DNA of 64,000 nucleotides from Acidimicrobiia bacterium (lineage in GTDB: Bacteria; Actinomycetota; Acidimicrobiia; Spongiisociales; ZC4RG35). Every line of letters begins with the position of its first letter. The first letter of the stretch is position 1. Below, piece by piece: positions 35,849-50,650 of the stretch. The position numbers and the translations under genes were made by a program. Below the pieces are notes generated by a model. The model worked only from the letters and a program-made list of their open reading frames with translations, searched no databases and had not been told where the DNA came from. The stretch is taken from positions 21,390-85,389 of the forward strand of contig DATDPP010000079.1 in assembly GCA_035292685.1 (NCBI GenBank), given 5' to 3'.

Positions 35849-35923
35849 GTCTCTCCTGGGTAGGGAAAGCGGATGGTAAATCACCCGAAGGGGGTAGAAA
35901 CGAGCAGCCTTCGTCGACCTAAG

Positions 35924-36613
35924 ATGCGACGGATGGAGCAGACCCCAGAGCTGAAGATCTCCCCTCCCGAAGGCGGCTTTGCGGCCACCCGTCAGACGAC
36001 ACACGAATACGTGCGCGGGGTGCTTCGTCGGGCGATCCTGAACGGTGAGCTGGCGAGTGGCAGTCGTTTGGTCCAGGCGGAGTTGGCGGCAATGTTGGAG
36101 GTCAGCACCACACCGGTACGCGAGGCTCTCCGCGACCTCGCCACAGAAGGACTGGTCCAGTTCGACCCCCATCGGGGTGCGATCGTGTCCGAGCTCAGCT
36201 CCGAGGATGTACACGACATTTACGCGATCCGGACCGTGCTCGAGCCGTTGGCGATGCGTCAGGCAGTTTCCAAGGTGAGTGACACCTTGTTGGAGCGATT
36301 GCGCCGGCTACATCAGCGGATGCTCGACGAGCCTTATTCCGTAGAGTGGGTGGACCGCAATCGGGTGTTCCACATGGCGATCTACGAAACAGCTGCCTCG
36401 CCGCGGCTGGCCGGCATCATCCGAAACCTCCAGGACGCGTCGGTGATGTACATCGGGGCATCCCTCACGAGCAACCCAGAACTGCGGGCGGAGGCGAACC
36501 ACGGCCATGCCGAGATACTCGATGCCTTGGAGCATCGCGATGCCGAAGCCGCGGTAAAGGCGTTGACGGAGCACCTCAAGACCTCGATCACGGCCTACGA
36601 CAACTCTCACTGA
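35924..36613 (+). CDS. GntR-family transcriptional regulator, FadR/FCD subfamily
   Basis: 'LVQAELAAMLEVSTTPVREALRDLATEGLV' followed by an FCD-like helical domain. The start could be 35873, 35924 or 35933. Confidence 0.85.
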   Translation: MRRMEQTPELKISPPEGGFAATRQTTHEYVRGVLRRAILNGELASGSRLVQAELAAMLEVSTTPVREALRDLATEGLVQFDPHRGAIVSELSSEDVHDIYAIRTVLEPLAMRQAVSKVSDTLLERLRRLHQRMLDEPYSVEWVDRNRVFHMAIYETAASPRLAGIIRNLQDASVMYIGASLTSNPELRAEANHGHAEILDALEHRDAEAAVKALTEHLKTSITAYDNSH

Positions 36614-36622: not shown

Positions 36623-37603
36623 TCAGCCAACGCCGCTCTCGACAACCGGAGGCCCGAATCCCTCCTTGCCCTTCTCGGCGAGGAGGTTGATGGCTACGCC
36701 GATCACCACCAGCACCAAGCCGATGGCGAGGGACACCGTTATCTGCTCACCGAGCAGGATCGCAGAGGAGACCACCCCGACCACCGGAACCGCCATGAGG
36801 GTCAGATTCGTCGAGACTGCCGACAGATTCCGCAGAATCACGATCTGGGCCCAGAATGCGATCCCCGTGGCAAGGACCCCCTGGTAGAGGACGACCAATA
36901 TCAGTTGCGGCGTCCAATGGATCGCCGGGACACCCTCAACGGCCAAGCCCAGGACGACGAGGAGGGCGGTGGCTCCGATCAACTGCCACGGGATGGCTTC
37001 GAGGGGGGTGATAGCCCAGCGATGACGCCTGATGTGCACCGAAGTCGCGGCGTTGGTGATCGCGGCGAGTATCAGGAGCCCGTGGCCGAGAGCCACCCCC
37101 CGGTTGTCCCAGTCGAAACTCCACGGCTCGAAAACCACGATGACCCCGGCGATGCCGAGAAGGAGGCCAACCCATCTCCGCCCGCTCATCCGCTCGCCGA
37201 GGAAGATGGCAGCTATCGGAACCGTCCACAAACTCGTGGTCCACACCACTACCGACGACCTGCCGGGTGGCACCAGTTGGAGCGCGGTGAAGACGAGGAC
37301 GAAAACAGCGGCAAGGCGAAATACCGCCAGGGAAATCAATATCGGGAGGTCGGCGCGCAGCGGCAAGGCAAGCTTGCCTCTCACCACACCGATGGTGATC
37401 ACCACGATCGCCGCGCCAGCCACTCTGAAGGCCCCCATCCAAAGAGGTGTGATCGCCTGGATGCCAGTGGCCATCACGGGCCAGTTGAGACCAAGCACGA
37501 GAACGACTGTCACCAGGAGGGTGTAGATGCCCAGCCGGGTCGGCCGGCCTTCTCCGTGTGCTCGACCACGGGACCAAAAGAGATCCTTGACCGGGCGGCT
37601 CAT
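36623..37603 (-). CDS. DMT-superfamily (EamA-like) transporter
   Basis: About ten hydrophobic helices arranged as two EamA-like halves. Confidence 0.8.
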   Translation of the reverse strand: MSRPVKDLFWSRGRAHGEGRPTRLGIYTLLVTVVLVLGLNWPVMATGIQAITPLWMGAFRVAGAAIVVITIGVVRGKLALPLRADLPILISLAVFRLAAVFVLVFTALQLVPPGRSSVVVWTTSLWTVPIAAIFLGERMSGRRWVGLLLGIAGVIVVFEPWSFDWDNRGVALGHGLLILAAITNAATSVHIRRHRWAITPLEAIPWQLIGATALLVVLGLAVEGVPAIHWTPQLILVVLYQGVLATGIAFWAQIVILRNLSAVSTNLTLMAVPVVGVVSSAILLGEQITVSLAIGLVLVVIGVAINLLAEKGKEGFGPPVVESGVG

Positions 37604-37622
37604 GTCAGATATCCCGCAGGAC
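37604..37622. promoter_or_regulatory. Motif-1 site (weak): GTCAGATATCCCGCAGGAC
   Basis: 12/19 match to site C, including GCAGGA. Lies in the divergent gap between the DMT gene (37603) and the amidohydrolase (37672). Confidence 0.35.
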
Positions 37623-37671
37623 GCGGTCCGGTTAGGGTGCCCGCAGCCAACCGACGGAGGCGACCGTCACG

Positions 37672-38670
37672 ATGAAGACGATCGATATCCATTGCCATAT
37701 GTCGACACCGGCGAGCCGCGTCCCGGTCGCGATGCACAGACGGCCCCGAGACGAGCCGTACGACTACTTCATGGGCGAGGATTCCAGGGCCCACAACGCG
37801 GTGATGTACCCCGCCATTGCGGAGTCCCTGACCAACCCGGCCGCCCGTATTGAGCACATGGACAGGATGGGAATCGACCTCCAGGGCCTGGCAACCTTCG
37901 TTTCGGAGTACTCCTACTGGGCCCCCGCACGAGCCGGGGCGGAGTCGTCGCGGATCCAGAACGACAACCTGGCGGCGACGGTGGCCGCCAACTCCGATCG
38001 GTTCGTAGGGATGGGGGCCACGGTTCCCATGCAGGACATCGACCTCGCCATAGCCGAGATGGATCGCGCCATCGACGACCTGGGGTTCAAGGGTCTCCAG
38101 ATTGGAGGGACCATCAACGGGCGCAACCTCGACGAGCCGCGATTCCGACCATTCTGGGCAGCGGTGGAGGCCAAAGGCATACCTGTGATCCTCCACCCCA
38201 GCGGCTATACGGAAGGCCACAGATTCGGTGACTACTTCCTCACCAACTGCATCGGGAACCCCCTGGAGACGATGGTGGCTGCGACCCGCATGATCTTCAG
38301 CGGCCTGTTCGAGGAGCACCCGGGCATCAAGTTGGTCTTGCTCCATGGAGGGGGATACCTGCCCTTCTACAGCGCCCGCGCCGATCACACATGGGAGGTC
38401 AGGCCCGAGACCCGGATTCATATCCCCGACCACAACCCCAGCCATTACATGCGAGGCCTGTTCTACGACACGATGGTGTTCCAACCTCTCTATCTGAGGC
38501 ATTTGATCGAAGTGGTCGGAGTGGATCGGGTGATGCTGGGAACCGATTTTCCCTTCGATATGAGCGAAGTAGATCCTCGTGGCCTGATCGCCGCTACCGA
38601 CGGGATCACCGACGAGGACCGAGCCGAGATATCCGGGGGGAACGCGGCTCGCCTGTTCGGGATCTCTTGA
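37672..38670 (+). CDS. Amidohydrolase_2 family protein (ACMSD/LigW/LigJ-type)
   Basis: 'IDIHCHMS', 'LLHGGGYLPFY' and 'GTDFPFDM'. Confidence 0.85.
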   Translation: MKTIDIHCHMSTPASRVPVAMHRRPRDEPYDYFMGEDSRAHNAVMYPAIAESLTNPAARIEHMDRMGIDLQGLATFVSEYSYWAPARAGAESSRIQNDNLAATVAANSDRFVGMGATVPMQDIDLAIAEMDRAIDDLGFKGLQIGGTINGRNLDEPRFRPFWAAVEAKGIPVILHPSGYTEGHRFGDYFLTNCIGNPLETMVAATRMIFSGLFEEHPGIKLVLLHGGGYLPFYSARADHTWEVRPETRIHIPDHNPSHYMRGLFYDTMVFQPLYLRHLIEVVGVDRVMLGTDFPFDMSEVDPRGLIAATDGITDEDRAEISGGNAARLFGIS

Positions 38671-38727
38671 GCTAAACAGTCTCATCGGCACCGCCTCGCC
38701 GACCAGGCCCGAGCACATCGCCGAGAT

Positions 38728-40071
38728 TCATGCCTCCTCCGGGGGAACCCAGTCGGGAGTGGGCGTGTCATACGAGTGGGGCTCGTAGCGGTAGCCGACG
38801 AATTGGGGCGCCCATCGCCCCAGAAGCAGGGCGCCACCAATGCAGGCGAGACCACCCGACACCACGGAGAACCGAATCGAAGTCAACGCCGCCACGACGC
38901 CCGCCTCCAGATCTCCCAGCCGGGGGCCACCCGCTACCACCGCCATGTGGATCGAGGAGAGACGCCCCCGAAGCTCGTCAGGCGCGGCCAGTTGGACGAT
39001 TGTCCCCCGGAAGATCGCCGACACCACATCGGCCGCCCCGGCAATCGCCAGCAGCGCCAGGGCCAGTCCGAGAAACTCGGTCAGCCCGAAGATCGCGATT
39101 GCGATTCCCCATATGATCACGGCGACCATGACGGCATAGCCCTGCCGCCGCACCACCGACACCCACCCGGAGGTAAGGGCCGCGAGCAGGGCACCGGCGC
39201 CTGGGGCGGCGAAGAGGAGACCAACGGTGAAGGCGTCGCCGCCGAACACCGTGGTTCCCATCGCCGGGAAGAGGGCAGTGGGCATGCCGAAGACCATGGC
39301 ATTGAGGTCGATGAGGAATGTGGCCTGGAGCAGCCGGCGCCCCTTGAGATAGCGAAGACCCTCGGTGATCGACGAAAGCTCGAATTTGCGGCCGCCACCC
39401 ACGGGAGGTTGATCGGGGATGCGCCGGATCACCAGCGCCGCGGCGATGAAGGCGACGACCTCGATCCCATAGCTGAACGCCAGACCCACGGTCGCAATGA
39501 GGAGCCCTCCGAGTGCGGGGAACACCGCCCTGGCAACGTTGACCAGCGTTTGGTTGAGAGCCATGGCCGATGGAAGCAAACTCCTGCCCACCAAACCGGG
39601 GACAATCGAAGCGCGGGTCGGAGAGTCGATGGCAGACACCCCGGCGTTGACAGCACTGAGGACGAACAGAGGCCAGATGAGGGGTTGATCGGCGATCGAG
39701 TTCCACAAGAGCCCAGCGGCGGTGCCAGCGAGCACCAGTTGGGTGAGGATCAGCAGCCGGCGCCGGTTCACCGCGTCGGCGAGCGCCCCTCCCACGAGGG
39801 CAACCGCCAACAATGGGACGAGTTGCGCCAGCCCGAGAAGACCGACAGCCAGCGTGGAGCCTGTGAGCTGGTAGACCTGGAATGGAACAGCCACCACCGT
39901 GAGCTGTCGCCCGGCCTGGGCCAGGAACATCCCGAGGAACAACCACCTATAGCCGGGCACCTGTCGCAGTGGCGTGGTATCCACCACCGCCAGACGGCCA
40001 AACCGCCGTAGACGATCCTTCAATTGATCACCCTTCCCTGGCCTCGCCCGCGTGACCTTCCGGGGAATCAC
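38728..40071 (-). CDS. MFS transporter (EntS/MFS_3-like)
   Basis: 'YRWLFLGMFLAQAGRQLTVVA' N-terminal pattern and about 12 helices. Last gene of the operon 47451->38728. Confidence 0.8.
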   Translation of the reverse strand: MIPRKVTRARPGKGDQLKDRLRRFGRLAVVDTTPLRQVPGYRWLFLGMFLAQAGRQLTVVAVPFQVYQLTGSTLAVGLLGLAQLVPLLAVALVGGALADAVNRRRLLILTQLVLAGTAAGLLWNSIADQPLIWPLFVLSAVNAGVSAIDSPTRASIVPGLVGRSLLPSAMALNQTLVNVARAVFPALGGLLIATVGLAFSYGIEVVAFIAAALVIRRIPDQPPVGGGRKFELSSITEGLRYLKGRRLLQATFLIDLNAMVFGMPTALFPAMGTTVFGGDAFTVGLLFAAPGAGALLAALTSGWVSVVRRQGYAVMVAVIIWGIAIAIFGLTEFLGLALALLAIAGAADVVSAIFRGTIVQLAAPDELRGRLSSIHMAVVAGGPRLGDLEAGVVAALTSIRFSVVSGGLACIGGALLLGRWAPQFVGYRYEPHSYDTPTPDWVPPEEA

Positions 40072-40122
40072 TCGATCAAGTGATCCCCCACGGCGGGAAG
40101 CTGACCCTCTTGGCCGTCCATT

Positions 40123-42480
40123 CTATGTGGGGATCCTGGCACCCCGACCACTGATCGCGTTGAACACCCATTCGCTGCTGACCGGATGGTGATTGACCAC
40201 GATCCCGTACTGGCTCAAGGCGTGCTCGATGGCGGAGATGACGGCCGCGGCGGCGGGAAGGGTTCCCCCCTCCCCCGCCCCCTTGGCTCCGAGTGGATTG
40301 AACGGGGACGGGGTCTCCGTGTGGAGTTTGGTCAGGGGAGGCATATCAACTGCTGTCATCAACCGATAGTCCATGAATGAGGTGGTGAGCGGCTGACCGG
40401 ATTCGGTGAATACCACTTGCTCCAAAAGCGCATTGCCCAGACCGTGGGCCACTCCCCCATCGATCTGGCCGTCCACGATCATCGGGTTGAGGACCGTGCC
40501 ACAGTCATGGACCACGACATAATTGACGACCGTCACCTGACCGGTCTCCGGGTCCACCTCCACTTCGGCAATATGGGTGCCGTAGGCGTAGGCGGCCCCT
40601 TGGAATGGGAGCACTCGCTCGACCGACAGTCCGGGGCGCTCCTGATGGAGCAGCACAGTGGATCCGAGCTTCGGTTGAACACCGGATGCCAGATCACCGA
40701 GTGAGATCTCGGTTCCCGGCTGGCCAACCACCATCGCAGCACCACCGACCAGAACGATGTCCTCCGGTGACGCCTCCAGCTTCTGCGCCGCCAACTCCTT
40801 GATCAGGCCCGCGAGTTCAATCGCTGTGGTGTGGATTGCCGACGCCGCGGTCACCCCGGTGCGGCTGGCCACCGTCGCCATGCCGTGGGCGTAGCGCCCG
40901 GTGTCCCCACCCCGCACCCGGACCTTTCCGGGGTCGACCCCAAGGTGTTCGGCGCAGATCTGGGCAAAAACCGTGGCGTGGCCCTGGCCCTGGGAGCCCG
41001 CCCCGGTTTCGACCAGCACATCACCGTTGGTCAGAACCTCGATACGGGCCCCCTCGTATGGGCCCAGACCGGTGTCCTCGACATAGGAGGCGATTCCATA
41101 TCCCCGAAGTTTTCCCTGCTGTGCCGACCAGGCACGTCGCTCTTCGAACTCATCGACAGTGGCCGCCTCCAGCGCCATCTCCATAGCAGCGGGGTAGTCG
41201 CCCCCGTCATAAGTGGTAGGGCTCCCATCGGTGGCCGGGATATCTATCCGGTAGGGAAAGGCATCCGGTGGGATGAAGTTTCGCCGTCTCACCTCTGCCC
41301 GGTTCAGATCGAGCTCTCGGGCAATGGCGTCTATGAGTCGCTCGACCGCGAAAACCGCGTTAGGTCGCCCTGCGCCACGAATGGCGCCGGTTGGGGACGC
41401 ATTGGTGAATACCACATCGATCGATACCTCGAGTGCCGGGACCACGTAGGGCCCTGACATCAATCGGAGTGTGGTGAAAGGAACTGGGAGCCCATAGGCC
41501 ACAAAAGCACCGATGTCGTGGACTAGTCGGCCCCGGATCCCGAGGATCCTCCCCTCGGAATCCACCGCAGCCTCCACCCGACCACTCTGCCCCCGTTGCT
41601 GGTTGGTGGCCACGAAATGCTCGCGTCGGCGCTCAGTCCATTTCACGGGGCGGCGCAGCCGCGAGGCCAACGCCGCCACCACGTACTCCTCGGCGTAAAC
41701 CGTCGCTTTGGGCCCAAAACCACCACCGACGTCGGGGGCGATCACCCGCAACTCGTCCGGAGAGAGGCCGAGATACGAGGACACGAGAGTCCGCACGGCG
41801 TGTGGGGCCTGGCTGGACGACCACAGTGTCAGCCGACCCTCCACATCGTCCCAGCGACCGACAACGGCCCGACATTCCATCGAGGCCAGGGCCCCCCGAT
41901 GCTGGTCCACATCGATTGAGATCTGATGGTCAGCCTCTTGGAACGCCGCATCGAGATCCCCGTATCTGGCCGCGATGGTCGCCACCAGATTCGATTCGGA
42001 GCCGACATGAGCCGGAGGCGCGTCGTCGTCAAGCGCTCGTCGGTGGTCGATGACAACAGGGAGCACCTCGTAGTCGACCTCGACCTGACCGGCGGCGTCG
42101 ACGGCCTCGGCCTGGCTCTCGGCAACCACGACTGCGACGGGTTGGCCCACGAAACAGACCTCTCCCACGGCCAGCGGAGAGGCGCGGATCGGCTGGCGGA
42201 TGAGTGGAGACTGATTCTGCGCCGGCATCGGTGATTCGACCCCCAGGTCCGCGGCCGTGAAGAAGCCGATCAGCCCGGTGGTCCCCGCGGGGTCAAACGA
42301 AATGGAATCGATCAAGGCATGGGCTTCTGCGCTTCGGATGAACACCGCGTGGGCCATTCCCTCGAACTGGATGTCGTCGACGTAGCGCCCCTCCCCCCTC
42401 ACCAGACGAGGATCTTCGAGACGACGGAGCGGGCGGCCGATCAACGAACCAGCCCGCCCAACTCCTCGAGATACCGGCAC
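40123..42480 (-). CDS. Molybdopterin-binding large subunit of a xanthine-dehydrogenase/aldehyde-oxidase/CoxL-family hydroxylase
   Basis: 'RLEDPRLVRGEGRYVDD' N-terminus, 'GAIRGAGRP' active-site-loop type, 'GGGFG' and C-terminal 'AKGAGEGG'. The alternative TTG start at 42444 would give a TTGA overlap with the upstream stop. Confidence 0.9.
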   Translation of the reverse strand: MPVSRGVGRAGSLIGRPLRRLEDPRLVRGEGRYVDDIQFEGMAHAVFIRSAEAHALIDSISFDPAGTTGLIGFFTAADLGVESPMPAQNQSPLIRQPIRASPLAVGEVCFVGQPVAVVVAESQAEAVDAAGQVEVDYEVLPVVIDHRRALDDDAPPAHVGSESNLVATIAARYGDLDAAFQEADHQISIDVDQHRGALASMECRAVVGRWDDVEGRLTLWSSSQAPHAVRTLVSSYLGLSPDELRVIAPDVGGGFGPKATVYAEEYVVAALASRLRRPVKWTERRREHFVATNQQRGQSGRVEAAVDSEGRILGIRGRLVHDIGAFVAYGLPVPFTTLRLMSGPYVVPALEVSIDVVFTNASPTGAIRGAGRPNAVFAVERLIDAIARELDLNRAEVRRRNFIPPDAFPYRIDIPATDGSPTTYDGGDYPAAMEMALEAATVDEFEERRAWSAQQGKLRGYGIASYVEDTGLGPYEGARIEVLTNGDVLVETGAGSQGQGHATVFAQICAEHLGVDPGKVRVRGGDTGRYAHGMATVASRTGVTAASAIHTTAIELAGLIKELAAQKLEASPEDIVLVGGAAMVVGQPGTEISLGDLASGVQPKLGSTVLLHQERPGLSVERVLPFQGAAYAYGTHIAEVEVDPETGQVTVVNYVVVHDCGTVLNPMIVDGQIDGGVAHGLGNALLEQVVFTESGQPLTTSFMDYRLMTAVDMPPLTKLHTETPSPFNPLGAKGAGEGGTLPAAAAVISAIEHALSQYGIVVNHHPVSSEWVFNAISGRGARIPT

Positions 42481-43316
42481 AGGGCAGCGGCATCGAGGTC
42501 TCCCAGCCCGGCGTTACTCGACTCCATGTAGACGGGGATGGCCGCGTCGAGAAGTGGTGTTGGCGCACCGACCGACTCTGCGAAGTCCTTGATGATCCGT
42601 GCGTCTTTGAGGATGATGTCGAGGCGGGCCGCCGTTGGGTAATCGTCGTTCACCATCATTGGGCCTCGTATCTCGAAGATCTTCGAGGACCCGACCCCAT
42701 CGGTCATGACCTCCTGGACCAGGGCCGGGTCGAGCCCGGCAGCGATCCCGAGCGCATGAGCCTCGGCGGTCGCCAGGTTATGCACCGCCACCAGCAGGTT
42801 GGCAACGTACTTCATCCTCGACCCGTTGCCGAAGTCACCCAGGTAATGGGTCGATCGCCCGATGGCGTCCAACACGGGCCGCGCCCGCTCGAATCCCTCC
42901 GGACTGCCAGAGGCAAATACCACCAGAGTGGCGTCCGCCGCCTGAAGACCCGTCCCTGAGAGAGGCGTGTCCATCAACTCCACGCCCTTCGCCGCCAACG
43001 ACGACCTTGCGGCCGTCTTGGCGTCGAGGGGGAAGGTCCCCGTTTCCAGACAGAGCAGGCCGCTGTGGGCGTTGGCTGCCACTTCTGTGACCACAGCTGA
43101 AAGGGACGACGTAGTGGGCAGCGAGAAAACCACCACATCGGAGTCGGCCGCAACCTCACCCGCCGACGCCGACTCGACCCCACCTTTCGCAACCATTGCC
43201 GCGATCTTCTCAGGCGCGATGTCGAAGCCCTTCACCCGGTGACCCGCCCTCAGGAGGTTTCCGGCCATCGCCGAGCCCATCACCCCGAGACCGATCACAC
43301 CGACCCGATCACTCAT
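42441..43316 (-). CDS. HIBADH-type NAD(P)-dependent beta-hydroxyacid dehydrogenase
   Basis: 'VGVIGLGVMGSAM', 'LMDTPLSGTG' and 'GNGSRMKYVANLL'. Start taken at ATG 43316. Confidence 0.85.
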   Translation of the reverse strand: MSDRVGVIGLGVMGSAMAGNLLRAGHRVKGFDIAPEKIAAMVAKGGVESASAGEVAADSDVVVFSLPTTSSLSAVVTEVAANAHSGLLCLETGTFPLDAKTAARSSLAAKGVELMDTPLSGTGLQAADATLVVFASGSPEGFERARPVLDAIGRSTHYLGDFGNGSRMKYVANLLVAVHNLATAEAHALGIAAGLDPALVQEVMTDGVGSSKIFEIRGPMMVNDDYPTAARLDIILKDARIIKDFAESVGAPTPLLDAAIPVYMESSNAGLGDLDAAALCRYLEELGGLVR

Positions 43317-44949
43317 CGTCGCCTCCTCGGAGCGGCAGCGACGAAACCACCCCGGCATAGCCGTCGACAGCCACGATCTCGAGCCTATCCCCGGGAAGAT
43401 CGACGCCGCACACAGCCGGGACGCCGAGCGCCCTGGCCGAATCGAATAGATGCGCTGCTGGGCTCCCTGACGCAGTCACCAGCCCGGCAGCGTCCCAGAG
43501 CAGCGGCGCCAGGCCAGGCACTGGCTGTACCGCGGACGCCACCTGTCGGACGCGGAAGGACTCTGTCAAGCTTGAGTCGTCGATCGGACACCGTAGTCCG
43601 GCACCGACACCGGATGAGGCCGGGGTGCCACGATGATGACGCCCGTTCACCAGGACAACAGCAGCAACGAATGGCTCCCATTGGCCGATCCCGACCCTCG
43701 CTGCCATGACGCGGGTGGACCCGCCGAGCACCGAGTCCACGTCGCCTTTCGCCAGATACCAGGCTGATTCTGCGTCCGCCGCAGCGCCAAGTTCGACCAT
43801 CGTCGTTCGAACCATGCTCACCAAGGAAAGCAGACGCCCGCCAGCCATGGCATCCGGTGGGCGGAGGCGGCGAACCTGCGCGATCGCGCTCGCCGGATCT
43901 GGCCCCCGCAAAGCCCGGATGCATTTCCTGGCGGCCTCGATGGCCGATTCCGGAGGAAGCCCCCAGACCTCCCCTGCAAGTTGGGCGCAGAGCTCTGTCG
44001 CCTCACGCGAAGCCTCGGTCGGCGATCCGAAGTCCGTCGGCACCGGGTCGGGCAAGCCACCCAGGCCCCAGGGGAGGATCCAGGCCTCTCCCAACTGGCC
44101 GGGAGCCTGGACGACAGTCCGTGCCAGCCGAATCAGATGAGGGTCGTCGAGCTCACCCTCCATGACCCCCGCAAATGCGGGTTCGCCAGGTGGCGGAGCA
44201 CCCAGCTGTAGCAACCAGACCTCACCATCGACTGCCGCCCATTCGCTCTGAGTGACCCCCAAAAGCTCGCCGGCCGATCGCATGCTCCTCGCGATCGCGG
44301 TTAGCGTCTCGGCCCCCAACAGCTCTATAAGCTCATCCTCAACCCAGCCATCCTTCCAACGAGCCTGATGACCGGTCACCCAGCCCTGCAACAGTGGGGC
44401 CGGCGAGCCCTTGGTACCGATGATCGAGATGGCCCCATCCGCCTCAATCCGGGCGGTTCCCCCTGCCGAGGGTTGCAATGCAGGTTGGACGATCACAGAC
44501 ATCGCGACCGACCCCGGTTCAATGGATGCTCGCTCCAACCGCTCCAGCGTGGCCACCGCGAAGACCGAGGCCCAGCACCCGACCACGCCTCTGGTCAGAT
44601 CGTCAAGCCCGAGATCGAGATAGGAGGTGAAGGCCCCGGACCACTCGCCAGACGCCTCCAGGCTCGTAGACGATCGCGCCACCAGCATCGGTCCCAACGG
44701 AGACGCCCGAGTTTTCAACTCGGCGCCAAAGGACAAGGGCTCACCGGTGATCGCCAGACGAGCCCCACCCGAACCCCGTTGGGCGAGATTCTCTGCCCCC
44801 AACCTCATGTGCTCGCGCGACGCCCTGCCTTCGACCACGATCCCGGGGAGAATCGGGAGGCCCACCCTCCGGCCACGCGCCAGCCAGGCTGCCTTGGCAC
44901 CGACCCTTCCCGGGTCGAGGCTTCGATCCTCGTCGAGGTCGATGATCAC
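43309..44949 (-). CDS. PEP-synthase/PPDK-like phosphotransferase: ATP-grasp nucleotide-binding domain plus C-terminal phosphohistidine swivel domain, with no PEP/pyruvate TIM-barrel domain
   Basis: N-terminus 'GRVGAKAAWLARGRRVGLPILPGIVV' (PPDK_N-like) and 'MLVARSSTSLE'. C-terminus 'GLVTASGSPAAHLFDSARALGVPAVCGV' (mobile His domain). The protein ends about 30 aa later. Confidence 0.7.
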   Translation of the reverse strand: MIIDLDEDRSLDPGRVGAKAAWLARGRRVGLPILPGIVVEGRASREHMRLGAENLAQRGSGGARLAITGEPLSFGAELKTRASPLGPMLVARSSTSLEASGEWSGAFTSYLDLGLDDLTRGVVGCWASVFAVATLERLERASIEPGSVAMSVIVQPALQPSAGGTARIEADGAISIIGTKGSPAPLLQGWVTGHQARWKDGWVEDELIELLGAETLTAIARSMRSAGELLGVTQSEWAAVDGEVWLLQLGAPPPGEPAFAGVMEGELDDPHLIRLARTVVQAPGQLGEAWILPWGLGGLPDPVPTDFGSPTEASREATELCAQLAGEVWGLPPESAIEAARKCIRALRGPDPASAIAQVRRLRPPDAMAGGRLLSLVSMVRTTMVELGAAADAESAWYLAKGDVDSVLGGSTRVMAARVGIGQWEPFVAAVVLVNGRHHRGTPASSGVGAGLRCPIDDSSLTESFRVRQVASAVQPVPGLAPLLWDAAGLVTASGSPAAHLFDSARALGVPAVCGVDLPGDRLEIVAVDGYAGVVSSLPLRGGDDE

Positions 44950-44954
44950 CCCGG

Positions 44955-46193
44955 TCAGGTGGTCGAGATGATCTCGTGGGAGGCGTAGCTCGATACCAGC
45001 TCGATGCCGGTATCGGTCACGTAGAGCATCTCCTCCAGGCGAACACCGTGATCGTGGAGCTTGCCGTGTTGCGTCTCGAGAGCGAACGTCATCCCCGGCT
45101 GGATCTCGACCGGATGGTCCAAAGACCAGATCCGGGAAATGACCGGAGGATCGTATTGGGCGAGACCGAGACCGTGTCCCCAGAAGTTGGCTGCGGCCTG
45201 GTCCTCCTCCTCATATCCCCAGACCTCCTTGGCCGAAGGCCACTGCGAGGCAACATCTGCGGTGGTAACCCCGGGTTTGGTGGCCTCGATCGAATCCCAC
45301 AGCCATTTGTGGGCCAGGTCATAGGTCTGCTGATGTTCGTCGGTGGGTGTGCCACCCACGCAATAGGTGCGATAGACACACGACTTGAAGCCATTCCAGG
45401 TCAACGCAGCCAGGTCGACGATCACCAATTCGCCAGGCCTGATCATGCGATCGGAGAAGTTGCGCCAATTTGGCCAGGCGTTGGGGCCGGAGGAGACGAT
45501 GACGTCCTCGACGTCTTCCATGCCAGGGAGCGAATAGAGCTTCTCGAACCCAAAGGCAGCGACCTCGTTCTCGGTCAACCCGGGCTTTATGAAGTTGGTG
45601 ATCTCGTAATGGACGTAGTCGCAAATCGCCCCCACGATCGAGAACGCCTTGATCTCGTCTGGGCTCTTGATCGCCCGGGCCTCCATCATCGGGGTCATTC
45701 CATCGGTCCAGTTGATCCCGCGTGCCTCGAATTGGCGCACCAGGTTGATGTCGATGAAGTCGACGCCAAGCGGCTGGTCTTTGACTCCTGCCTCCTCCAG
45801 GTCGTTCATCAGGGCGTCGAGGAACTTGTTGACCTGCTGCTCGGCTGCGGGGCCGACCGCTCCCTTGATCCAGGAGTAGGAGTAGCGGATGTTCTCCTCG
45901 GGAATCCAAGGATTGTGGACTTTGAGATGAAAACCGATATCGCCCTGTTCGTACACGATGGGTGGCTTACCGGCGGTCAGCACCACGTAGCGAAGGCCCG
46001 GCTTCAACCGGTTCCAACCGGGCGTGAGGGTCGAGGACACGTAACGCATGTTCTCGTCGTAGAACAGGAGCAGCGCACCCAGACCGTGGCGCTCCATTGC
46101 CGCGTGAGCGCGTTTGAGCCTCCAATCCCGCACATTGGCCCAGTTGATGCCTTCCTTCCAGTCGGTGCTCAGACCGAAAAACGCTTCTCTCAT
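44955..46193 (-). CDS. M24-family (creatinase/prolidase pita-bread fold) protein with a variant metal site
   Basis: Creatinase_N-like N-domain; C-domain motifs 'VIVDLAALTWNGFKSCVYRT', 'WGHGLGL', 'FALETQ' and 'VRLEEML'. Confidence 0.8.
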   Translation of the reverse strand: MREAFFGLSTDWKEGINWANVRDWRLKRAHAAMERHGLGALLLFYDENMRYVSSTLTPGWNRLKPGLRYVVLTAGKPPIVYEQGDIGFHLKVHNPWIPEENIRYSYSWIKGAVGPAAEQQVNKFLDALMNDLEEAGVKDQPLGVDFIDINLVRQFEARGINWTDGMTPMMEARAIKSPDEIKAFSIVGAICDYVHYEITNFIKPGLTENEVAAFGFEKLYSLPGMEDVEDVIVSSGPNAWPNWRNFSDRMIRPGELVIVDLAALTWNGFKSCVYRTYCVGGTPTDEHQQTYDLAHKWLWDSIEATKPGVTTADVASQWPSAKEVWGYEEEDQAAANFWGHGLGLAQYDPPVISRIWSLDHPVEIQPGMTFALETQHGKLHDHGVRLEEMLYVTDTGIELVSSYASHEIISTT

Positions 46194-46218
46194 GGTGGTG
46201 CCGTCTCCCTCTTCTTCC

Positions 46219-47451
46219 TCAACCGACCCTATCCGGGATCACCTCGCGCACAATGTCGAGAAACTCGTCATCGTCGAGAAGGCCTTTCTTGGCGAGCGAC
46301 CGACCTTTGACCTCGGCGAGGATCGCCTCGATCTGCTTCGTCTCGGCGTCGAAGATGTCGTGTCTTCCAAGCCAGATCGCCACTGAGTCGAGACCGGATC
46401 CCTTTCCCAGGACGATCTTTGGCATGCTCTGGCCGACCAGCTCGGGACGATAGGGGAAGGGCTCGAGCAGGTCGTCGCCCACGTTCTTCACCCACGTGGC
46501 GATGATCCCCGACTCGACATTGAACAGCATGTCGCCGGTCACCGGTCGATTCGACGGCTGGGCTACGCCTGACAACTCCGCCACCAAACGAGCGATTTCG
46601 GTGAATTTCTCGGTCTTGACCCCCATGTCGATCCCGTACATCGTGAGCAAAGCGAGCACGGTCTCCTCGGTCGGTGCGTTCCCGGCGCGCTCCCCGATGC
46701 CACTGACCGTGGTGTGAATGACCGAAGCGCCTTCGGCCACGGCCAAGGCCGTGTTGGCCACGCCCATCCCGAAATCCATGTGGAAATGAGTCTCGAGCGG
46801 GACGTCGAGACGTTCCCGAACCCGCCGGGTGTAATAGCGGATCGCATGTGGAGAGGTGACCCCGAAGGTGTCGACGAGGGCGATGTTGTCGACATGACCG
46901 TTGGTGGCCACCGTCTCCAGGTCGTCGAGCAGCTCGGTCATCGTCGCCCGGGTGGCGTCGATGGGGAAGAATGTGACCTTGAGACCGTTCTCGTGGGCGT
47001 ACTTGGTGGCTTCGACGGATGCCTCGATCGCCCTCTCCACCGGCCACCGGTAGGCCTTCTCGATGAGATGATGGCTGGCAGGGACCTCCATGACCACACC
47101 TGTCACCCCACAGTCGAGTGCCAGCTCCACGTCGGGGACCATGCATCGACTGAAGGCATAGATCTCGGTCGGGAGCTCCGCGGCGACCATGCGCTCGATG
47201 GCCTGTTTGTCCGACGGTGAGACTGCGGGGAGCCCGGCCTCGATCCGGTGGATCCCGGCCTCAGCCAGGGCCTCGGCAAGCCTGACTTTCTCGTCGGCGG
47301 TGAACTCGACCCCTGCCTGCTGCTCACCGTCACGCAGGGTCACGTCATGGACCTTCACCTCGGACGGTATCTGGAATTCCCCGGTCACCTCAGGCAGATA
47401 GTTCCAAGGGCTCGAAAACCATTGGTCCGTCTTCCATGGCTCCTGACCCAT
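46219..47451 (-). CDS. HMGL-like / pyruvate carboxyltransferase-domain protein (homocitrate/isopropylmalate/citramalate synthase-type aldolase family)
   Basis: 'VHDVTLRDGEQQAGVEF', 'HFHMDFGMGVANTLAAV'-type HxH metal motif (here 'THFHMDFGMGVANTALAV') and 'GIGERAGNAPTEE'. Confidence 0.85.
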   Translation of the reverse strand: MGQEPWKTDQWFSSPWNYLPEVTGEFQIPSEVKVHDVTLRDGEQQAGVEFTADEKVRLAEALAEAGIHRIEAGLPAVSPSDKQAIERMVAAELPTEIYAFSRCMVPDVELALDCGVTGVVMEVPASHHLIEKAYRWPVERAIEASVEATKYAHENGLKVTFFPIDATRATMTELLDDLETVATNGHVDNIALVDTFGVTSPHAIRYYTRRVRERLDVPLETHFHMDFGMGVANTALAVAEGASVIHTTVSGIGERAGNAPTEETVLALLTMYGIDMGVKTEKFTEIARLVAELSGVAQPSNRPVTGDMLFNVESGIIATWVKNVGDDLLEPFPYRPELVGQSMPKIVLGKGSGLDSVAIWLGRHDIFDAETKQIEAILAEVKGRSLAKKGLLDDDEFLDIVREVIPDRVG

Positions 47452-47475: not shown

Positions 47476-47501
47476 CAGGATGATCCTGCATCATATACGA
47501 T
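47476..47501. promoter_or_regulatory. Motif-1 site E (reverse orientation; rc of 47483..47501 = ATCGTATATGATGCAGGAT) plus an overlapping perfect palindrome CAGGATGATCCTG (47476..47488)
   Basis: 18/19 identical to site C. Lies in the 90-bp divergent gap between the HMGL-like operon (start 47451) and the DctP-like operon (start 47542). Confidence 0.65.
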
Positions 47502-47541: not shown

Positions 47542-48462
47542 ATGAAGGCCCAACGCCTGCTCATAGGTGGTTATGGACCGAAAGAGAGCGCCCATGGCGA
47601 GGGCCTGGCGACTTTCCGACAGGTCATCGAGCGAGAGACCGATGGTCAGGTCCTGGTAGACGTCATCTGGAACATCATGGAACAGGGGCGTCCCAACACC
47701 GACCTCTTCGACATGGTCGAGTCCGGTGAGATGTTCTTGTGCTACTTCTCGAGCAGTTATCTGGGGGATCGGGTGCCCCATCTCAATATCCTGGAGACCC
47801 CCTATCTGTTCCACGACCTCGACTCGGCCCACCGTGCTCTCGACGGTTCCTTGGGCCGCGCCCTGGCCGAAGCGGTGCGGGTCGGCGCCGGGTTCGAGTT
47901 GCTCGGGCTCTGGGACAACGGATTTCGGCATTTCACCAATCGGCACCACCCGGTGCGGTCTCCCACGGATTGTGCAGGAATGACGGTTCGCCTCCAGCCC
48001 AACGCCGTCCATGAGGAGTTGATCAGGTCATGGGGGGCAATCCCGGTCCCCGTCGACCTCAAGGCGGGCATCGAGATGATCGGTCGTCTCGAGGTCGATG
48101 CCCAGGAGAACCCATTGGCCAACACCGTGGCCTACGGAGTCGACAAGCTCCATCGCTTCGTGACCATGACCGGCCATCTCTACGGCGCTCGCGGGCTGTT
48201 TGCCCACGCTCCCACCTGGGATTCGTTCCCACCCGACCTCCGAGCCACCGTGAGCAGGGCTGCGCAAGAAGCTGTCAGCCATCAGCGAGAGGCGGCGGAA
48301 GCGCTGGAGGCCAAACTGCGCACCCGGCTCGAGGAATCCGGGACCGAGTTCGTGGATCTGACACCGGAGGAGCACGCGGCATTCATCGAGGCGTCGGCTC
48401 CTGCGATTGTCCTTGCCCATTCCGGTGTGCCGGTGGAGCTGTTCGAGTTGGCCGCACCATGA
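47542..48462 (+). CDS. DctP-like (TRAP-type) solute-binding protein homologue without a signal peptide
   Basis: DctP-family pattern 'GLWDNGFRHFTN', 'VDAQENPL' and 'HLYG'. The N-terminus 'MKAQRLLIGGYGPKE' has no hydrophobic h-region, lipobox or twin-Arg motif. Confidence 0.7.
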   Translation: MKAQRLLIGGYGPKESAHGEGLATFRQVIERETDGQVLVDVIWNIMEQGRPNTDLFDMVESGEMFLCYFSSSYLGDRVPHLNILETPYLFHDLDSAHRALDGSLGRALAEAVRVGAGFELLGLWDNGFRHFTNRHHPVRSPTDCAGMTVRLQPNAVHEELIRSWGAIPVPVDLKAGIEMIGRLEVDAQENPLANTVAYGVDKLHRFVTMTGHLYGARGLFAHAPTWDSFPPDLRATVSRAAQEAVSHQREAAEALEAKLRTRLEESGTEFVDLTPEEHAAFIEASAPAIVLAHSGVPVELFELAAP

Positions 48463-49211
48463 GTGTGGTCTTCCGATTCGAAGGCCGGGTAGTGGTGGTC
48501 ACCGGGGCCGCCACCGGCATCGGCAAGGCAACCGCGGAGGCGTTCGGCGCAGCGGGATCGAAGGTCTATCTCATCGACATCGACGGCGAGCGCGGGCGCG
48601 AGGCCGCCGCCGGAGTCGAGGGCGCGACATTCATCGCGTGTGATCTCACCTCCGAGGAGCAAGTGAACTCTGCGATTGGGAGGATCAGGGAGGACACCGA
48701 TCGGATAGACGTGCTGGTCAACAACGCCGGAGGCTTCGGGACGGCGAGAAGCATCGAGGACACCACGCTCGAGGAGTGGCACCAAGTCCTGGACGTCAAC
48801 CTCACCTCGGTCTTCGTCATGACCCGGGCGGCACTCCCCCTGCTCCGCCATTCAGAGGCTGGTCGTATCGTCAACCTCGGGTCCCTTGCCGGTCAGACTG
48901 CGGGATGGCGCACCGCGCCATCGTATGTTGCCTCCAAAGCGGGGGTCCACGCCCTGACCCGGGTGATGGCCACTGAACTCGCCGCGCAGGGCATCACGGT
49001 CAACGCTCTGGCCCCCTCCGCGGTTCTCACCGAGCGCATCGGGCAGCTGCGTGACGAGGCCGAGTTGAAAGCCACCGCGGCGGCGATTCCCCTCGGTCGC
49101 TACCAACGCCCGGACGAACTGGCCCACTGGGTCCTGTTCCTGGCATCTCCCGAAGCCGGGTTCATGACCGGTCAGACGGTATCGGTCAACGGCGGTAGGT
49201 TCATGGCGTGA
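48459..49211 (+). CDS. Short-chain dehydrogenase/reductase (SDR)
   Basis: 'VVVVTGAATGIGKA', 'NNAG' and 'YVASKAGV'. ATGA overlap with the upstream gene. Confidence 0.9.
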   Translation: MSVVFRFEGRVVVVTGAATGIGKATAEAFGAAGSKVYLIDIDGERGREAAAGVEGATFIACDLTSEEQVNSAIGRIREDTDRIDVLVNNAGGFGTARSIEDTTLEEWHQVLDVNLTSVFVMTRAALPLLRHSEAGRIVNLGSLAGQTAGWRTAPSYVASKAGVHALTRVMATELAAQGITVNALAPSAVLTERIGQLRDEAELKATAAAIPLGRYQRPDELAHWVLFLASPEAGFMTGQTVSVNGGRFMA

Positions 49212-49229: not shown

Positions 49230-49613
49230 TTGGCGGAGCTGATCAAGTTCGACGAAGCGGAGCCTGTGGCCCGGGGTCACGGGATCGAGAGCATCCGGTT
49301 GACGCCGACCCCTCTCGCAGCCCAGGGTTTCGTCATGGGCATCACCAGCTTTCCGCCAGGGACGAGCATTGGTCTCCACAGCCACAACACCATCGAACAG
49401 GTGACGGTCGTCGAGGGCGAAGGGATCGCCGAGTTGAACGGCGAGCAGGTGCTGGCTCACCCCTATGACACCACCCAAATCGCACCGGGTGAGTGGCATC
49501 GGTTCATCAACACCGGATCGACGACGATGAGAATCCTCTGGGTGTACGGCAGCACCGAGGTCACCCGTACGTTTGCCGACACCGGGGAGACGGTCGAGCA
49601 GTTCTCGCAGTGA
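49230..49613 (+). CDS. Small cupin-fold protein
   Basis: 'FPPGTSIGLHSHNTIEQVTVVEGEG' and 'GEWHRFINTG'. TTG start with a GAGGAG ribosome-binding site. Confidence 0.65.
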   Translation: MAELIKFDEAEPVARGHGIESIRLTPTPLAAQGFVMGITSFPPGTSIGLHSHNTIEQVTVVEGEGIAELNGEQVLAHPYDTTQIAPGEWHRFINTGSTTMRILWVYGSTEVTRTFADTGETVEQFSQ

Positions 49614-50650
49614 GATTCGCGTTCGACCGACTGCAGCGGTTTGTTGCCGACGTCCTGATCGCGATCGACGTCCTCCCGGACCATGCAGAGACCACAGCCC
49701 AGCGACTCCTCGAAGCCGACATGAGGGGCCGGAACGGGCACGGTCTGATCCGGGTTCCCCAATACGTCACCCGGATCGAAGCCGGCGGCATCAACCTCCG
49801 GCCCAAGATCACCCGCCGTCGGGAGTCTGCGGTGAGTGCGTTGATCGACGGGGACAATGGCTTGGGCCAGGTGGTGATGACCGAGGCCACGGAGACCGCC
49901 ATCTCCAAGGCCGAGGCTTCCGGGATGGCCTGGGTGGGAACCGTCAACTCCAATCACGCCGGAGCCGCTGGGGTCTACACCTCGATGGCCCTCGAGCACG
50001 ACCTGATTGCTGTCTATTTCGCGGTGGCGAGTGCCAACGTCATGCCCCCCTGGGGCGGCCGGGACCGCTTGCTCGGGACCAATCCGATCTCCATTGCGAT
50101 CCCGGCCGGGAATGAAACGGCGTTTCTACTCGACATCGCCACCACGGTCACCTCACACGGGACGATCGCGGTCTTGGCCCAGGCCGGGGAACATATGCCA
50201 GAAGGCTGGGTTGCCGACCTCGAGGGAAATCCGATCCTCGACCCCAATCTGGCAAAAGAGGGCTTTTTGATGCCGATCGGCGGGTACAAGGGGTCGGGTC
50301 TGAATATCGCGATCGGTCTGCTCGCCGGGGTGCTCAACGGCGCCGCCTTCGGAGCCGAGGTGTTTGACCATCGCGAAGTGCCCGGACAGGCAGCGAACAC
50401 GGGTCAGTCGATCCTGGCGCTTCGACCTGACCTGTTTCGAGACCTCGATGAGTTCAAGGTCTCGATGGATGACCATCTGGAGGCTTTGCGCGCATCGGGC
50501 CCAGCGGGCAGCGTTCACCTCCCTGGAGAAGCCGCCGCCAGACTTCAAGAAGAGCAGCGGATCGAGGGGCTCCCGGTGCCGGACGTGCTGCTCGCCCAAC
50601 TGAGAGAACTGGCGCTGCGCCTCAACCTGCATGACCGACTCGACTCCTGA
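49610..50650 (+). CDS. Ldh_2-family (malate/L-lactate/ureidoglycolate/sulfolactate-type) NAD(P) dehydrogenase
   Basis: 'EADMRGRNGHGLIRVPQY', 'SNHAGAAG' and 'GGYKGSGLN'. GTGA overlap with the cupin stop. Confidence 0.8.
   Translation: MRFAFDRLQRFVADVLIAIDVLPDHAETTAQRLLEADMRGRNGHGLIRVPQYVTRIEAGGINLRPKITRRRESAVSALIDGDNGLGQVVMTEATETAISKAEASGMAWVGTVNSNHAGAAGVYTSMALEHDLIAVYFAVASANVMPPWGGRDRLLGTNPISIAIPAGNETAFLLDIATTVTSHGTIAVLAQAGEHMPEGWVADLEGNPILDPNLAKEGFLMPIGGYKGSGLNIAIGLLAGVLNGAAFGAEVFDHREVPGQAANTGQSILALRPDLFRDLDEFKVSMDDHLEALRASGPAGSVHLPGEAAARLQEEQRIEGLPVPDVLLAQLRELALRLNLHDRLDS

Follow-up and report, generated by a model that had tools for sequence, protein, structure and literature searches.

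What kind of enzyme results when a variant metallopeptidase-like protein is encoded directly in front of a truncated phosphoenolpyruvate (PEP) synthase? The question is raised by a run of six genes in an Acidimicrobiia bacterium (GenBank assembly GCA_035292685.1, contig DATDPP010000079.1), at positions 38728-47451 of a stretch of 64,000 nucleotides (nt) with a G+C content of 63%, which was analyzed as a whole and is here called the window. Two of the six genes, encoding a protein of the M24 (pita-bread) family and a dikinase related to PEP synthase, form a pair that recurs across phyla. Our tentative proposal, more doubtful than assured, is that both proteins would constitute a single enzyme, a split dikinase with the M24 protein as acceptor subunit. 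This proposal was reached because the dikinase, otherwise intact, has no acceptor domain, the two genes are near-obligate and apparently coupled neighbors, the M24 protein is conserved and DddP-like, and the genes around the pair share a 2-oxo/hydroxy-acid theme.

All six open reading frames (ORFs) lie on the minus strand and fill 38728-47451, with ends exactly where a first-pass annotation of the sequence had set them. In order of transcription, they encode an HMGL-like (homocitrate-synthase-like) DRE-TIM protein of 410 amino acids (aa) (46219-47451; Pfam HMGL-like, 211 bits), a DddP-like M24 protein of 412 aa (44955-46193; Pfam Peptidase_M24, 118 bits, plus a trace of Creatinase_N), a PEP-synthase-like dikinase of 546 aa (43309-44949; Pfam PPDK_N and PEP-utilizers mobile domain only), a HIBADH-family beta-hydroxyacid dehydrogenase of 291 aa from the ATG at 43316 (42441-43316, in an ORF reaching 43358; Pfam NAD_binding_2/11), a large molybdenum-cofactor (Mo) subunit of the xanthine oxidase family of 773-785 aa (40123-42480; Pfam Ald_Xan_dh_C and MoCoBD_1/2) and, as the last gene, an MFS_3/EntS-like transporter of the major facilitator superfamily (MFS; 38728-40071; Pfam MFS_3/MFS_1, MFS_3 138 bits). 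The G+C content at third codon positions (GC3) is 0.73-0.81 in all six, the range of real genes in a window of this composition. Junctions are tight, with a 25-nt gap between the HMGL-like and M24 genes, a 5-nt gap between the M24 and dikinase genes, an 8-nt overlap (ATGAGTGA) between the dikinase and HIBADH genes, given the ATG at 43316, a start supported by homologues and by a GGAGG in front of it, a 4-40 nt overlap between the HIBADH and Mo-subunit genes, varying with the choice of start codon, and a 51-nt gap ahead of the MFS gene. The unit ends at 38728, beyond which the first genuine gene (37672-38670) encodes an Amidohydro_2 protein and is convergent, on the plus strand; a 372-aa minus-strand ORF at 37600-38718 was rejected as a shadow ORF with no family match and low GC3. 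On the other side, 91 bp separate the HMGL-like start from a divergent DctP-like gene. Terminator-like sequences within the unit did not exceed those of shuffled sequences (3 vs. 5.5 expected), and promoter and terminator consensus scans were uninformative on this GC-rich actinobacterial DNA.

A single strand, tiny gaps or overlaps, and an order kept elsewhere behind a shared upstream element thus characterize the six genes, which are best explained, as far as the sequence can tell, as a regulated catabolic operon of Acidimicrobiia. We hold the anatomy and the conservation of this operon with high confidence. The first-pass annotation had named the same six families, all recognized by Pfam, and had taken them as a single transcription unit starting at a motif site (motif-1 site E); the compact block behind a conserved predicted promoter/operator motif agrees with that view. 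Its description of the M24 protein as a variant, of the dikinase as truncated and of the Mo large subunit as an orphan was also borne out, the last within this window. It had recognized no described pathway in the gene set, and in this, too, it holds: none of the six proteins reached an NCBIfam equivalog or curated cut-off, no close homologues map to a characterized pathway, and no paper linking these families was found, literature searches on M24/creatinase proteins with dikinases or PEP-utilizing enzymes and on DddP in Acidimicrobiia having yielded nothing relevant.

The upstream element is a promoter/operator-like motif, ATCGTATATGATGCAGGATC, at 47482-47501 on the minus strand (exact match; chance expectation 0.00), about 49 nt 5' of the HMGL ATG and before an AAGGAG ribosome-binding site. 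About 56-60 related loci carry it 38-57 nt 5' of their first gene, the intergenic DNA around it not being kept, and in a locus missing the HMGL gene (L069) it occurs 49 nt before the M24 gene instead. Many copies have outer palindromic arms (GATCGT...ACGATC), with a -10-like TATGAT hexamer inside; we infer that the 20-nt motif is a promoter with an overlapping operator. A riboswitch or other RNA element in the leader was discarded, as no Rfam match was found anywhere in the window and the apparent hairpin that follows the motif is lost in its variants.

Scanning a single genome of each species yielded 80 loci, nearly all labeled Acidimicrobiia, from soil, sediment, sea, and sponges. Window proteins were mapped onto the loci having enough flanking DNA, with positions relative to the dikinase; several of the locus maps rely on rough ORF prediction and tblastn. 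Organism names were taken as deposited, and some bins clearly bear wrong ones. Several loci carrying the Acidimicrobiia-type cluster (among L013-L084) were deposited as "Acidobacteriota" or "Boseongicola" metagenome-assembled genomes (MAGs), labels that are probably binning or labeling errors and not true occurrences. The dikinase has hundreds of homologues, and all named ones come from Acidimicrobiia MAGs.

Among these species loci, the M24 gene lies directly upstream of the dikinase gene in 68/72 and the HMGL gene before M24 in 58/66. HIBADH directly follows the dikinase in 40/70, the Mo subunit follows HIBADH in 24/61, an MFS_3 gene is located downstream of the dikinase in 24/59, and all six genes occur in order in 15/53. 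Three contexts, with dikinase identities of 85%, 59%, and 51%, retain the order HMGL, M24, dikinase, HIBADH, Mo subunit, MFS. Since the Mo subunit and the MFS transporter are absent from over half of the species genomes with the core, they are accessories, and the conserved unit is a core with optional additions rather than six genes. The first-pass annotation had asked whether the combination is conserved in other genomes, which it is, entirely in the 15 loci and as a core more often; its view of the six-gene set as one unit, however, gives way to an M24-dikinase pair reaching across phyla. Median cross-species identity is 90.5% for M24 and 87% for HMGL, 64-79% for the other neighbors, and 48% for the dikinase. 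The M24 and HMGL-like proteins are unusually strongly constrained, and the dikinase is fast-evolving.

The M24-dikinase pair is widespread in soil Actinomycetota and Proteobacteria. Contexts outside Acidimicrobiia were chosen for M24 proteins 60-79% identical to that of the window. In the isolate Phytohabitans suffuscus (L085; AP022871.1, around 368-390 kb), the M24 gene (79% identical) is followed, with a 23-nt overlap, by a gene for a 418-aa dikinase (11217-12473) that is 38% identical in the ATP-grasp domain and has no helical insert; neighbors include an ABC transporter, Amidohydro_2, 2-Hacid_dh, two GFO genes, and FAA_hydrolase. In a Gammaproteobacteria MAG, M24, a 423-aa dikinase and 2-Hacid_dh are found in succession, with HIBADH and TctABC nearby. 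In a soil contig, a LysR gene precedes M24, a 430-aa dikinase and two 2-Hacid_dh genes, in the vicinity of a cyclase, a complete CoxLSM set, two HIBADH genes, a CocE/NonD hydrolase, and Amidohydro_2. A closed contig of 2.95 Mb (L092) carries M24 and a 428-aa dikinase with a 4-nt overlap, and UbiD, glyoxalase, and IclR genes nearby. The pair elsewhere sits with uptake systems of the TctABC, tripartite ATP-independent periplasmic (TRAP), ABC, and SSF types, and in other phyla it occurs without HMGL and without the Mo subunit; the HMGL-like gene is restricted to Acidimicrobiia-type loci. Closed genomes with the pair include OZ253564.1 and OY760694.1 besides that of P. suffuscus.

A metagenome scan provided 80 further loci, in which a dikinase gene within 2.6 kb downstream of M24 was sought wherever there was enough DNA. 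Such a gene was present in 39 of 40 loci with an M24 protein at least 60% identical to that of the window, and in none of 14 with 33-48% identity (Fisher p = 5e-12). The adjacency is near-obligate and, because of the 5-nt gap here, the 4-nt overlap in L092 and the 23-nt overlap in L085, probably translationally coupled.

Dikinases of the PEP synthase, PPDK, rifampin phosphotransferase (RPH), and phenylphosphate synthase kind are made of three modules, namely nucleotide, swivelling His, and acceptor domains. To our knowledge, the acceptor domain has been retained in every characterized dikinase and has either of two folds. The operon dikinase consists of an ATP-grasp domain (residues ~1-250), a helical segment (~270-435), and a phosphohistidine swivel domain (~437-546) with His500, at which the chain ends; PEP-utilizers_C, the PEP/pyruvate-binding TIM barrel, is absent by Pfam. 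Residues K19, R92-S93-S94, Q155, E236, Q248, and His500 are kept in an alignment of 15 dikinases, and 84 of 85 sequences have His500, which is part of a GSPAAHLF motif. In profile searches against solved structures PEP synthase was best (E 8e-22), with rifampin phosphotransferase next. The AlphaFold model has a predicted local distance difference test score (pLDDT) of 74, the helical segment being confident and the swivel domain of lower confidence, and Foldseek matched it to RPH (5hv1), HpeI (9goj), and PEP synthase, all via the ATP-grasp domain.

With PpsA and PPDK the operon dikinase shares the N-terminal ATP-grasp domain and the central phosphohistidine swivel with its conserved His; as in PpsA, conversion of ATP to AMP and Pi through His~P chemistry is presumed by homology. 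It differs from PpsA in the absence of the C-terminal PEP/pyruvate TIM-barrel domain (~330 aa), in the separate M24 gene just upstream, and in NCBIfam PEPS scores far under the cut-off. Short dikinases from other phyla align over 97% of their length, at 32% identity, with the first ~458 of the 794 residues of an annotated PpsA (~3-460), and this minimal partner would correspond to a PEP synthase without its acceptor domain. Acidimicrobiia dikinases have in addition a helical insert of ~165 aa, confidently folded and missing from the 418-430-aa partners elsewhere; because these short partners lack it, the insert seems dispensable for pairing with M24. It might dock to the HMGL-like protein. RPH-type enzymes have a central acceptor domain of ~430 aa vs. 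this ~165-aa insert, and the NCBIfam RPH score is 27 vs. a cut-off of 999. In the two-component dikinases HpeHI, CreHI, and PpsAB, a lone ATP-grasp subunit works with a second subunit bearing both the acceptor and the swivel domains (PMC12167813). Like the operon proteins as we read them, these enzymes and RPH are small-molecule dikinases opening catabolic pathways, and HpeHI, CreHI, and PpsAB are likewise made of two proteins. Here, however, ATP-grasp and swivel share a chain, and a pita-bread M24 protein is the partner and the sole candidate for an acceptor protein; in HpeHI, CreHI, PpsAB, and RPH, the swivel is fused to a large RIF-binding-type acceptor domain.

The M24 protein has the pita-bread fold but not the five-ligand D,D,H,E,E set of M24 metallopeptidases. 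Its metal-ligand set is D260, C272, H340, E373, and E387, with Cys in place of the second Asp (GFKSCVYRTY). Cys272 is invariant across the subfamily, whereas a canonical M24 paralogue in the window (55572-56714) keeps the Asp. This second gene (380 aa), unrelated to the dikinase-paired clade (29% identity), adjoins a PGDH-like 2-Hacid_dh and a BKACE gene within 55572-58540. A search of 1.8 billion cluster representatives with the operon M24 returned one in-family representative at 73% identity, the next full-length relatives being at most 41% identical; these all have the same Cys and form a large Cys-type M24 subfamily, with cluster names no more specific than a generic "Xaa-Pro peptidase". 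Clade-specific invariant residues (R244, N245, H195, H376, Q346, D348, K64, and K110) lie beside the ligand motifs in sequence.

The AlphaFold2 model of the M24 protein (pLDDT 90.7) was matched by Foldseek to DddP lyases with a template modeling (TM) score of 0.85 and a root-mean-square deviation of 2.6 Å over 401 columns, prolidases, PepE, DoeA, and creatinase ranking lower (TM 0.70-0.76). The DddP match is full-length, including the N-terminal domain, and by sequence, too, a DddP (4s00) is the solved structure that matches best over the full length. DddP itself is one of the M24 enzymes that are not peptidases, and its substrate is a small carboxylate. The operon M24 is, however, only 23-24% identical to DddP and scores 107 with the NCBIfam DddP model NF043017, vs. 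a cut-off of 600. The DddP ligands, Asp295, Asp297, Asp307, His371, Glu406, and Glu421 in the numbering of the Ruegeria lacuscaerulensis structure, include two, Asp297 and Asp307, that align with Ala and Cys in the operon M24; moreover, DddP has no dikinase partner. A role in dimethylsulfoniopropionate (DMSP)/acrylate metabolism was rejected, with the DddP score far under the cut-off, two DddP ligands altered, and loci mostly from soil.

The neighbors of the pair were clustered in 34 diverse loci. The most frequent was 2-Hacid_dh (20/34), followed by HIBADH (15/34), GFO_IDH_MocA (12/34), ACMSD-like Amidohydro_2 (11/34), a CocE/NonD-type S15 hydrolase (9/34), a PF04199 cyclase (7/34), and a Zn-dependent alcohol dehydrogenase (Zn-ADH; 7/34). 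The 2-Hacid_dh neighbors have glyoxylate reductase, GhrB, and phosphoglycerate dehydrogenase as best models, and the HIBADH neighbors L-threonate dehydrogenase and tartronate-semialdehyde reductase, all sub-cut-off. These neighbors point to small 2-oxo/hydroxy acids and, less strictly, to enzymes of the ring-cleavage type, but not to the guanidino or N-heterocyclic substrate envisaged in the first-pass annotation.

Of interest is also a sister module. In at least 10 loci with G+C contents of 34-72% (L159, L161, L162, L165, L166, L168, and L170-L173), sister M24 genes, 33-42% identical and with the same Cys, His, Glu, and Glu, are followed by E1alpha, E1beta, and usually E2 genes, some also with E3 and succinate-semialdehyde dehydrogenase (SSADH) genes. 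Second M24 genes of L062 (620-4114) and L074 also precede 2-oxo-acid dehydrogenase genes, and on the Phaeobacter gallaeciensis plasmid pGal_E78 (L174, 34045-42428) the order is short-chain dehydrogenase/reductase (SDR), M24, E1alpha, E1beta, lipoyl protein, SSADH, E2, LpdA. This module, which appears uncharacterized, has the same M24 subfamily as the first gene of a tight operon but differs in having a thiamine pyrophosphate/lipoyl enzyme complex as partner and no dikinase (0/14 loci). The position of sister M24 genes beside 2-oxo-acid dehydrogenase genes therefore suggests that the subfamily is tied to 2-oxo acids or alpha-hydroxyketones. In a plasmid collection, the M24 genes all belonged to the sister clade and were at most 37% identical. 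On the Paenarthrobacter sp. R1 plasmid NZ_CP127116.1 (L175, 106401-113669), a sister M24 gene lies in a block of RidA, M24, oxidoreductase, SDR, and LpdA genes, with sulR, a flavin reductase gene for sulfonamide resistance, a few kb away.

In the mechanism that we propose, a small carboxylic acid would be held at the Cys/His/Glu/Glu metal centre of the M24 protein; at a guess, it would be one of the C3-C4 2-oxo or hydroxy acids, for instance pyruvate, hydroxypyruvate, glycerate, or a tetronate, although any single compound that might be named is improbable. The swivelling His~P of the dikinase would phosphorylate this M24-bound acid, ATP being converted to AMP and Pi as in PEP synthase, possibly followed by a DddP-type beta-elimination at the same M24 site. 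The adjacent dehydrogenase would interconvert the hydroxy and oxo acids, HIBADH playing this part here and a glyoxylate/hydroxypyruvate-reductase-like 2-Hacid_dh elsewhere. To this module Acidimicrobiia may have added the homocitrate-synthase-like protein, and a subset of species the orphan, aldehyde-oxidoreductase-like Mo subunit and the MFS transporter. That the pair represents a new architecture, in which the acceptor domain of a PEP-synthase-type dikinase is replaced in trans by a DddP-like pita-bread metalloprotein, is possible, though it deserves somewhat less credence than the partnership itself. Candidate reactions are the phosphorylation of a 2-oxo-acid enolate by an alternative PEP- or PEP-analogue-forming enzyme and the phosphorylation of a hydroxy acid with ensuing beta-elimination by an ATP-dependent dehydratase/lyase. 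A sugar-acid pathway composed of GFO dehydrogenase, Amidohydro_2 lactonase, and aldolase/FAH hydrolase, with the pair as the missing dehydratase, was weakened by the ACMSD/LigW-like character of the Amidohydro_2 protein; this idea survives solely as a phosphorylation-elimination sub-variant.

The remaining proteins of the operon fit characterized enzymes in part. Homocitrate synthases are the best solved structures for the HMGL-like protein (6ktq, E 3e-53; 2ztj), which shares with homocitrate, 2-isopropylmalate, and citramalate synthases a TIM barrel with C-terminal subdomain and the LRDGEQ and HxH metal/2-oxo-acid motifs; LRDGEQ is found in 64/64 homologues and HFHMDFG in 67/68. The HxSGIH motif of homocitrate and isopropylmalate synthases is, in contrast, replaced by [YF]xVESGII in 69/69 homologues. 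The first His of HxSGIH is the partner in a Glu-His dyad that enolizes acetyl-CoA in SpHCS and MtIPMS. The HMGL-like protein also has Phe at the place of TtHCS His72, involved in 2-oxoglutarate recognition, and lacks the LeuA regulatory domain; its best NCBIfam score is 308 vs. a cut-off of 517, and that for NifV 284 vs. 463. It very probably still binds a 2-oxo acid and a metal and, because the HxSGIH histidines are lost, is very probably not a canonical acetyl-CoA-dependent synthase. Phosphonate biosynthesis, in which FrbC/Pms-type homocitrate-synthase homologues act, was rejected, since a PEP mutase is missing and the HMGL-like protein no longer has the synthase His.

The HIBADH protein scores 202 vs. 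350 with the NCBIfam model for L-threonate dehydrogenase, 175 vs. 341 for tartronate-semialdehyde reductase, and 159 vs. 292 for HIBADH. AYRGAGR is the signature of form-II CoxL, VAYRCSFR being the active-site loop of form I CO dehydrogenase. The Mo subunit has the form-II-CoxL-like loop AIRGAGR, the catalytic Glu in GAGEGG and all three large-subunit domains, including the hammerhead, like form-II CoxL-like and glyceraldehyde oxidoreductases, but it scores below every named-family cut-off, with 689 vs. 950 for CODH group 5 and 571 vs. 790 for the glyceraldehyde dehydrogenase alpha subunit. From aerobic CO dehydrogenase of form I it differs by this loop and by a TIGR02416 score of 460 vs. a cut-off of 991. 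Iron-sulfur (FeS) and FAD partner subunits were found neither in the operon, nor in the three related loci compared, nor in the 64-kb window, whose six reading frames contain no CoxS-type 2Fe-2S motif. The MFS protein scores 230 bits vs. a cut-off of 324 with the NCBIfam EntS model.

Several observations weigh against a split dikinase. No M24-dikinase fusion occurs among the 150 nearest M24 representatives, and in a few loci another gene, for example Zn-ADH, lies between M24 and dikinase. The operon M24 keeps four of the five hydrolase ligands, so that it could simply be the hydrolase or lyase of the next or previous step, while the helical insert of the dikinase could itself bind the acceptor, as does the central domain of rifampin phosphotransferase. 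Cys272 was abandoned as a phospho-acceptor signature of coupling, the dikinase-less sister clade having the same Cys. Neighborhoods of the pair are also mixed, comprising ACMSD-like, CocE/NonD, PF04199, UbiD, and CoxLSM genes, and given this mixture an aromatic or heterocyclic substrate is conceivable. An alternative that we regard as unlikely, though the most serious of those considered, is that of two ordinary consecutive enzymes: a self-contained kinase of the RPH/HpeHI/phenylphosphate-synthase type would act on a phenolic or enolic hydroxyl, and a separate M24 hydrolase or lyase on an earlier or later intermediate, for example in phosphate removal or ester/amide cleavage. Foldseek ranks RPH and HpeI first for the dikinase model, catabolic dikinases are known to start aromatic pathways (PMC12167813), and neighbors such as an ACMSD-like decarboxylase, UbiD, glyoxalase, an FAD_binding_3 hydroxylase, and IclR/LysR regulators would suit such a route; the extra helical domain makes this alternative harder to dismiss for the window dikinase than for the short forms. 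The 418-430-aa partners, however, are made of ATP-grasp and swivel only, with no visible acceptor domain, whereas the characterized members all have one, be it within the same chain (RPH, PEPS) or as part of the swivel subunit (HpeH, PpsA). Two consecutive enzymes would, moreover, leave the adjacency in 39/40 loci, the translational coupling, and the extreme conservation of M24 unexplained.

The dikinase and the M24 protein might also cooperate in another manner, as an ATP-driven hydrolase or ring-opener of an amide, lactam, or amidine, by analogy with 5-oxoprolinase, N-methylhydantoinase, and caprolactamase, in which the dikinase would phosphorylate the carbonyl oxygen and the M24 metal centre would hydrolyze the activated bond. 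Amidine and amide hydrolases (creatinase and the ectoine hydrolase DoeA) are indeed structural neighbors of M24, amidase-like neighbors (PF04199 cyclase and CocE/NonD hydrolase) recur, and hydantoinase A/B genes are found close to a sister M24 gene from an archaeon. We consider this scheme improbable, as the closest structure is the lyase DddP, creatinase and DoeA being further off, no deaminases, aminotransferases, or urease are conserved with the pair, and the archaeal hydantoinase genes are on the opposite strand and a single occurrence; in addition, we know of no precedent for dikinase-type amide activation. Still less probable is the linear six-gene route of the first-pass annotation, in which an imported N-containing or aromatic acid would be activated with ATP and hydroxylated by the Mo enzyme, M24 then breaking a C-N bond and the HMGL-like enzyme a C-C bond. 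The compact arrangement of the genes, in the same order in 15/53 species genomes, and the soil locus joining the pair with a complete CoxLSM hydroxylase speak for it. Most genomes that keep HMGL-M24-dikinase nevertheless lack the Mo subunit and the MFS transporter, the pair dispenses with HMGL and with the Mo subunit in other phyla, the FeS/FAD subunits are absent from the window, and the best models for the Mo subunit are aldehyde-type (glyceraldehyde dehydrogenase) or form-II CoxL. The M24 structure is closest to the DddP lyase and not to creatinase/amidinohydrolases, the HMGL-like protein has lost both His of HxSGIH, including the canonical catalytic one, and the transporter, being of the EntS/MFS_3 type, may not be an importer. 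That same type, together with the EamA proteins, often exporters, and the resemblance of the HMGL-like protein to homocitrate synthase, would suit a biosynthesis/export cluster in which an acid that resembles homocitrate or bears a phosphate, such as a metallophore, leaves via the EntS-like MFS and EamA transporters. This last possibility is very faint: a GntR/FCD regulator and the operator-like motif are common to other Amidohydro_2/GFO catabolic-type operons, the pair is elsewhere accompanied by uptake systems, the transporters are accessory, and the synthase-type catalytic His is lost.

Around the operon, a second near-perfect copy of the upstream motif, ATCCTATATGATGCAGGATC, is present at 14972-14991 on the plus strand, between an alpha/beta-hydrolase gene and a CMD-family gene. 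Weaker variants (TATATTGTGCA) occur at 7234-7257 (+), 1551-1574 (+), and 16892-16915 (-), before an Amidohydro_2 gene and an MFS gene, and in related loci the motif is also found 5' of other Amidohydro_2, GFO, and MFS genes. The copies before other genes thus suggest a small multi-operon regulon, the regulator of which is possibly the conserved GntR/FCD protein.

The convergent Amidohydro_2 gene (37672-38670, plus strand) encodes an ACMSD-like protein of the non-oxidative decarboxylase branch (human ACMSD 4ign, E 5e-58), with LigW and gamma-resorcylate decarboxylase as next-best structures; such a gene lies within 9 kb in 32/54 species loci. It is followed by genes for an EamA transporter (36623-37603, minus strand), the GntR/FCD regulator (35873-36613, plus strand), and a Zn-dependent alcohol dehydrogenase (34847 to about 35848, minus strand), all assigned by Pfam. 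Together with the Amidohydro_2 gene, these three are retained in the contexts that keep the six-gene order (L001, L003, and L004), where they have the same order as here and in many species loci. On the other side, a divergent plus-strand operon begins with the DctP-like gene (47542-48462) and continues with SDR (48471-49211), cupin (49230-49613), and Ldh_2 (about 49613-50650) genes. This operon is found beside HMGL in L004 and in about 33 species loci, L004 retaining the entire divergent side (DctP-like, SDR, cupin, Ldh_2, FMN_dh, GFO, Amidohydro_2, and HpcH). The DctP-family (TRAP solute-binding) protein starts MKAQRLLIGGYGP, lacks a signal peptide, is not accompanied by DctQ/DctM genes, and is 306 aa long in homologues as well; it looks like a cytoplasmic homologue of solute-binding proteins.

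The wider window contains six Amidohydro_2 genes within 64 kb (442-1596, 4394-5263, 6153-7226, 7284-8282, 37672-38670, and 52743-53771), four HIBADH-family genes (5263-6156, 28909-29868, 29917-30825, and 42441-43316), at least four GFO_IDH_MocA genes, two FAA_hydrolase genes, two small cupins, an HpcH aldolase, FMN_dh, and Ldh_2. Paralogous catabolic genes of the small-acid or ring-cleavage type are thus packed unusually densely in this island.

Neither the pair nor the operon is accounted for by a curated family, a solved structure, or any paper found, and the existing annotations are generic. If the split-dikinase proposal is true, M24 would be a third acceptor fold among dikinases, and a first function would be available for many genes that at present carry the annotations "Xaa-Pro aminopeptidase" and "PEP-utilizing enzyme"; a single 90%-identity cluster of these genes comprises 2552 metagenomic sequences. 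The presence of the pair in a cultured isolate, Phytohabitans suffuscus, makes the idea directly testable. If true, the sister module of M24 and 2-oxo-acid dehydrogenase genes would mark a second uncharacterized route producing 2-oxo acids. For the soil and marine Acidimicrobiia, abundant and mostly uncultured, the pair could reveal a hidden step in the breakdown of small hydroxy/oxo acids or of ring-cleavage products.

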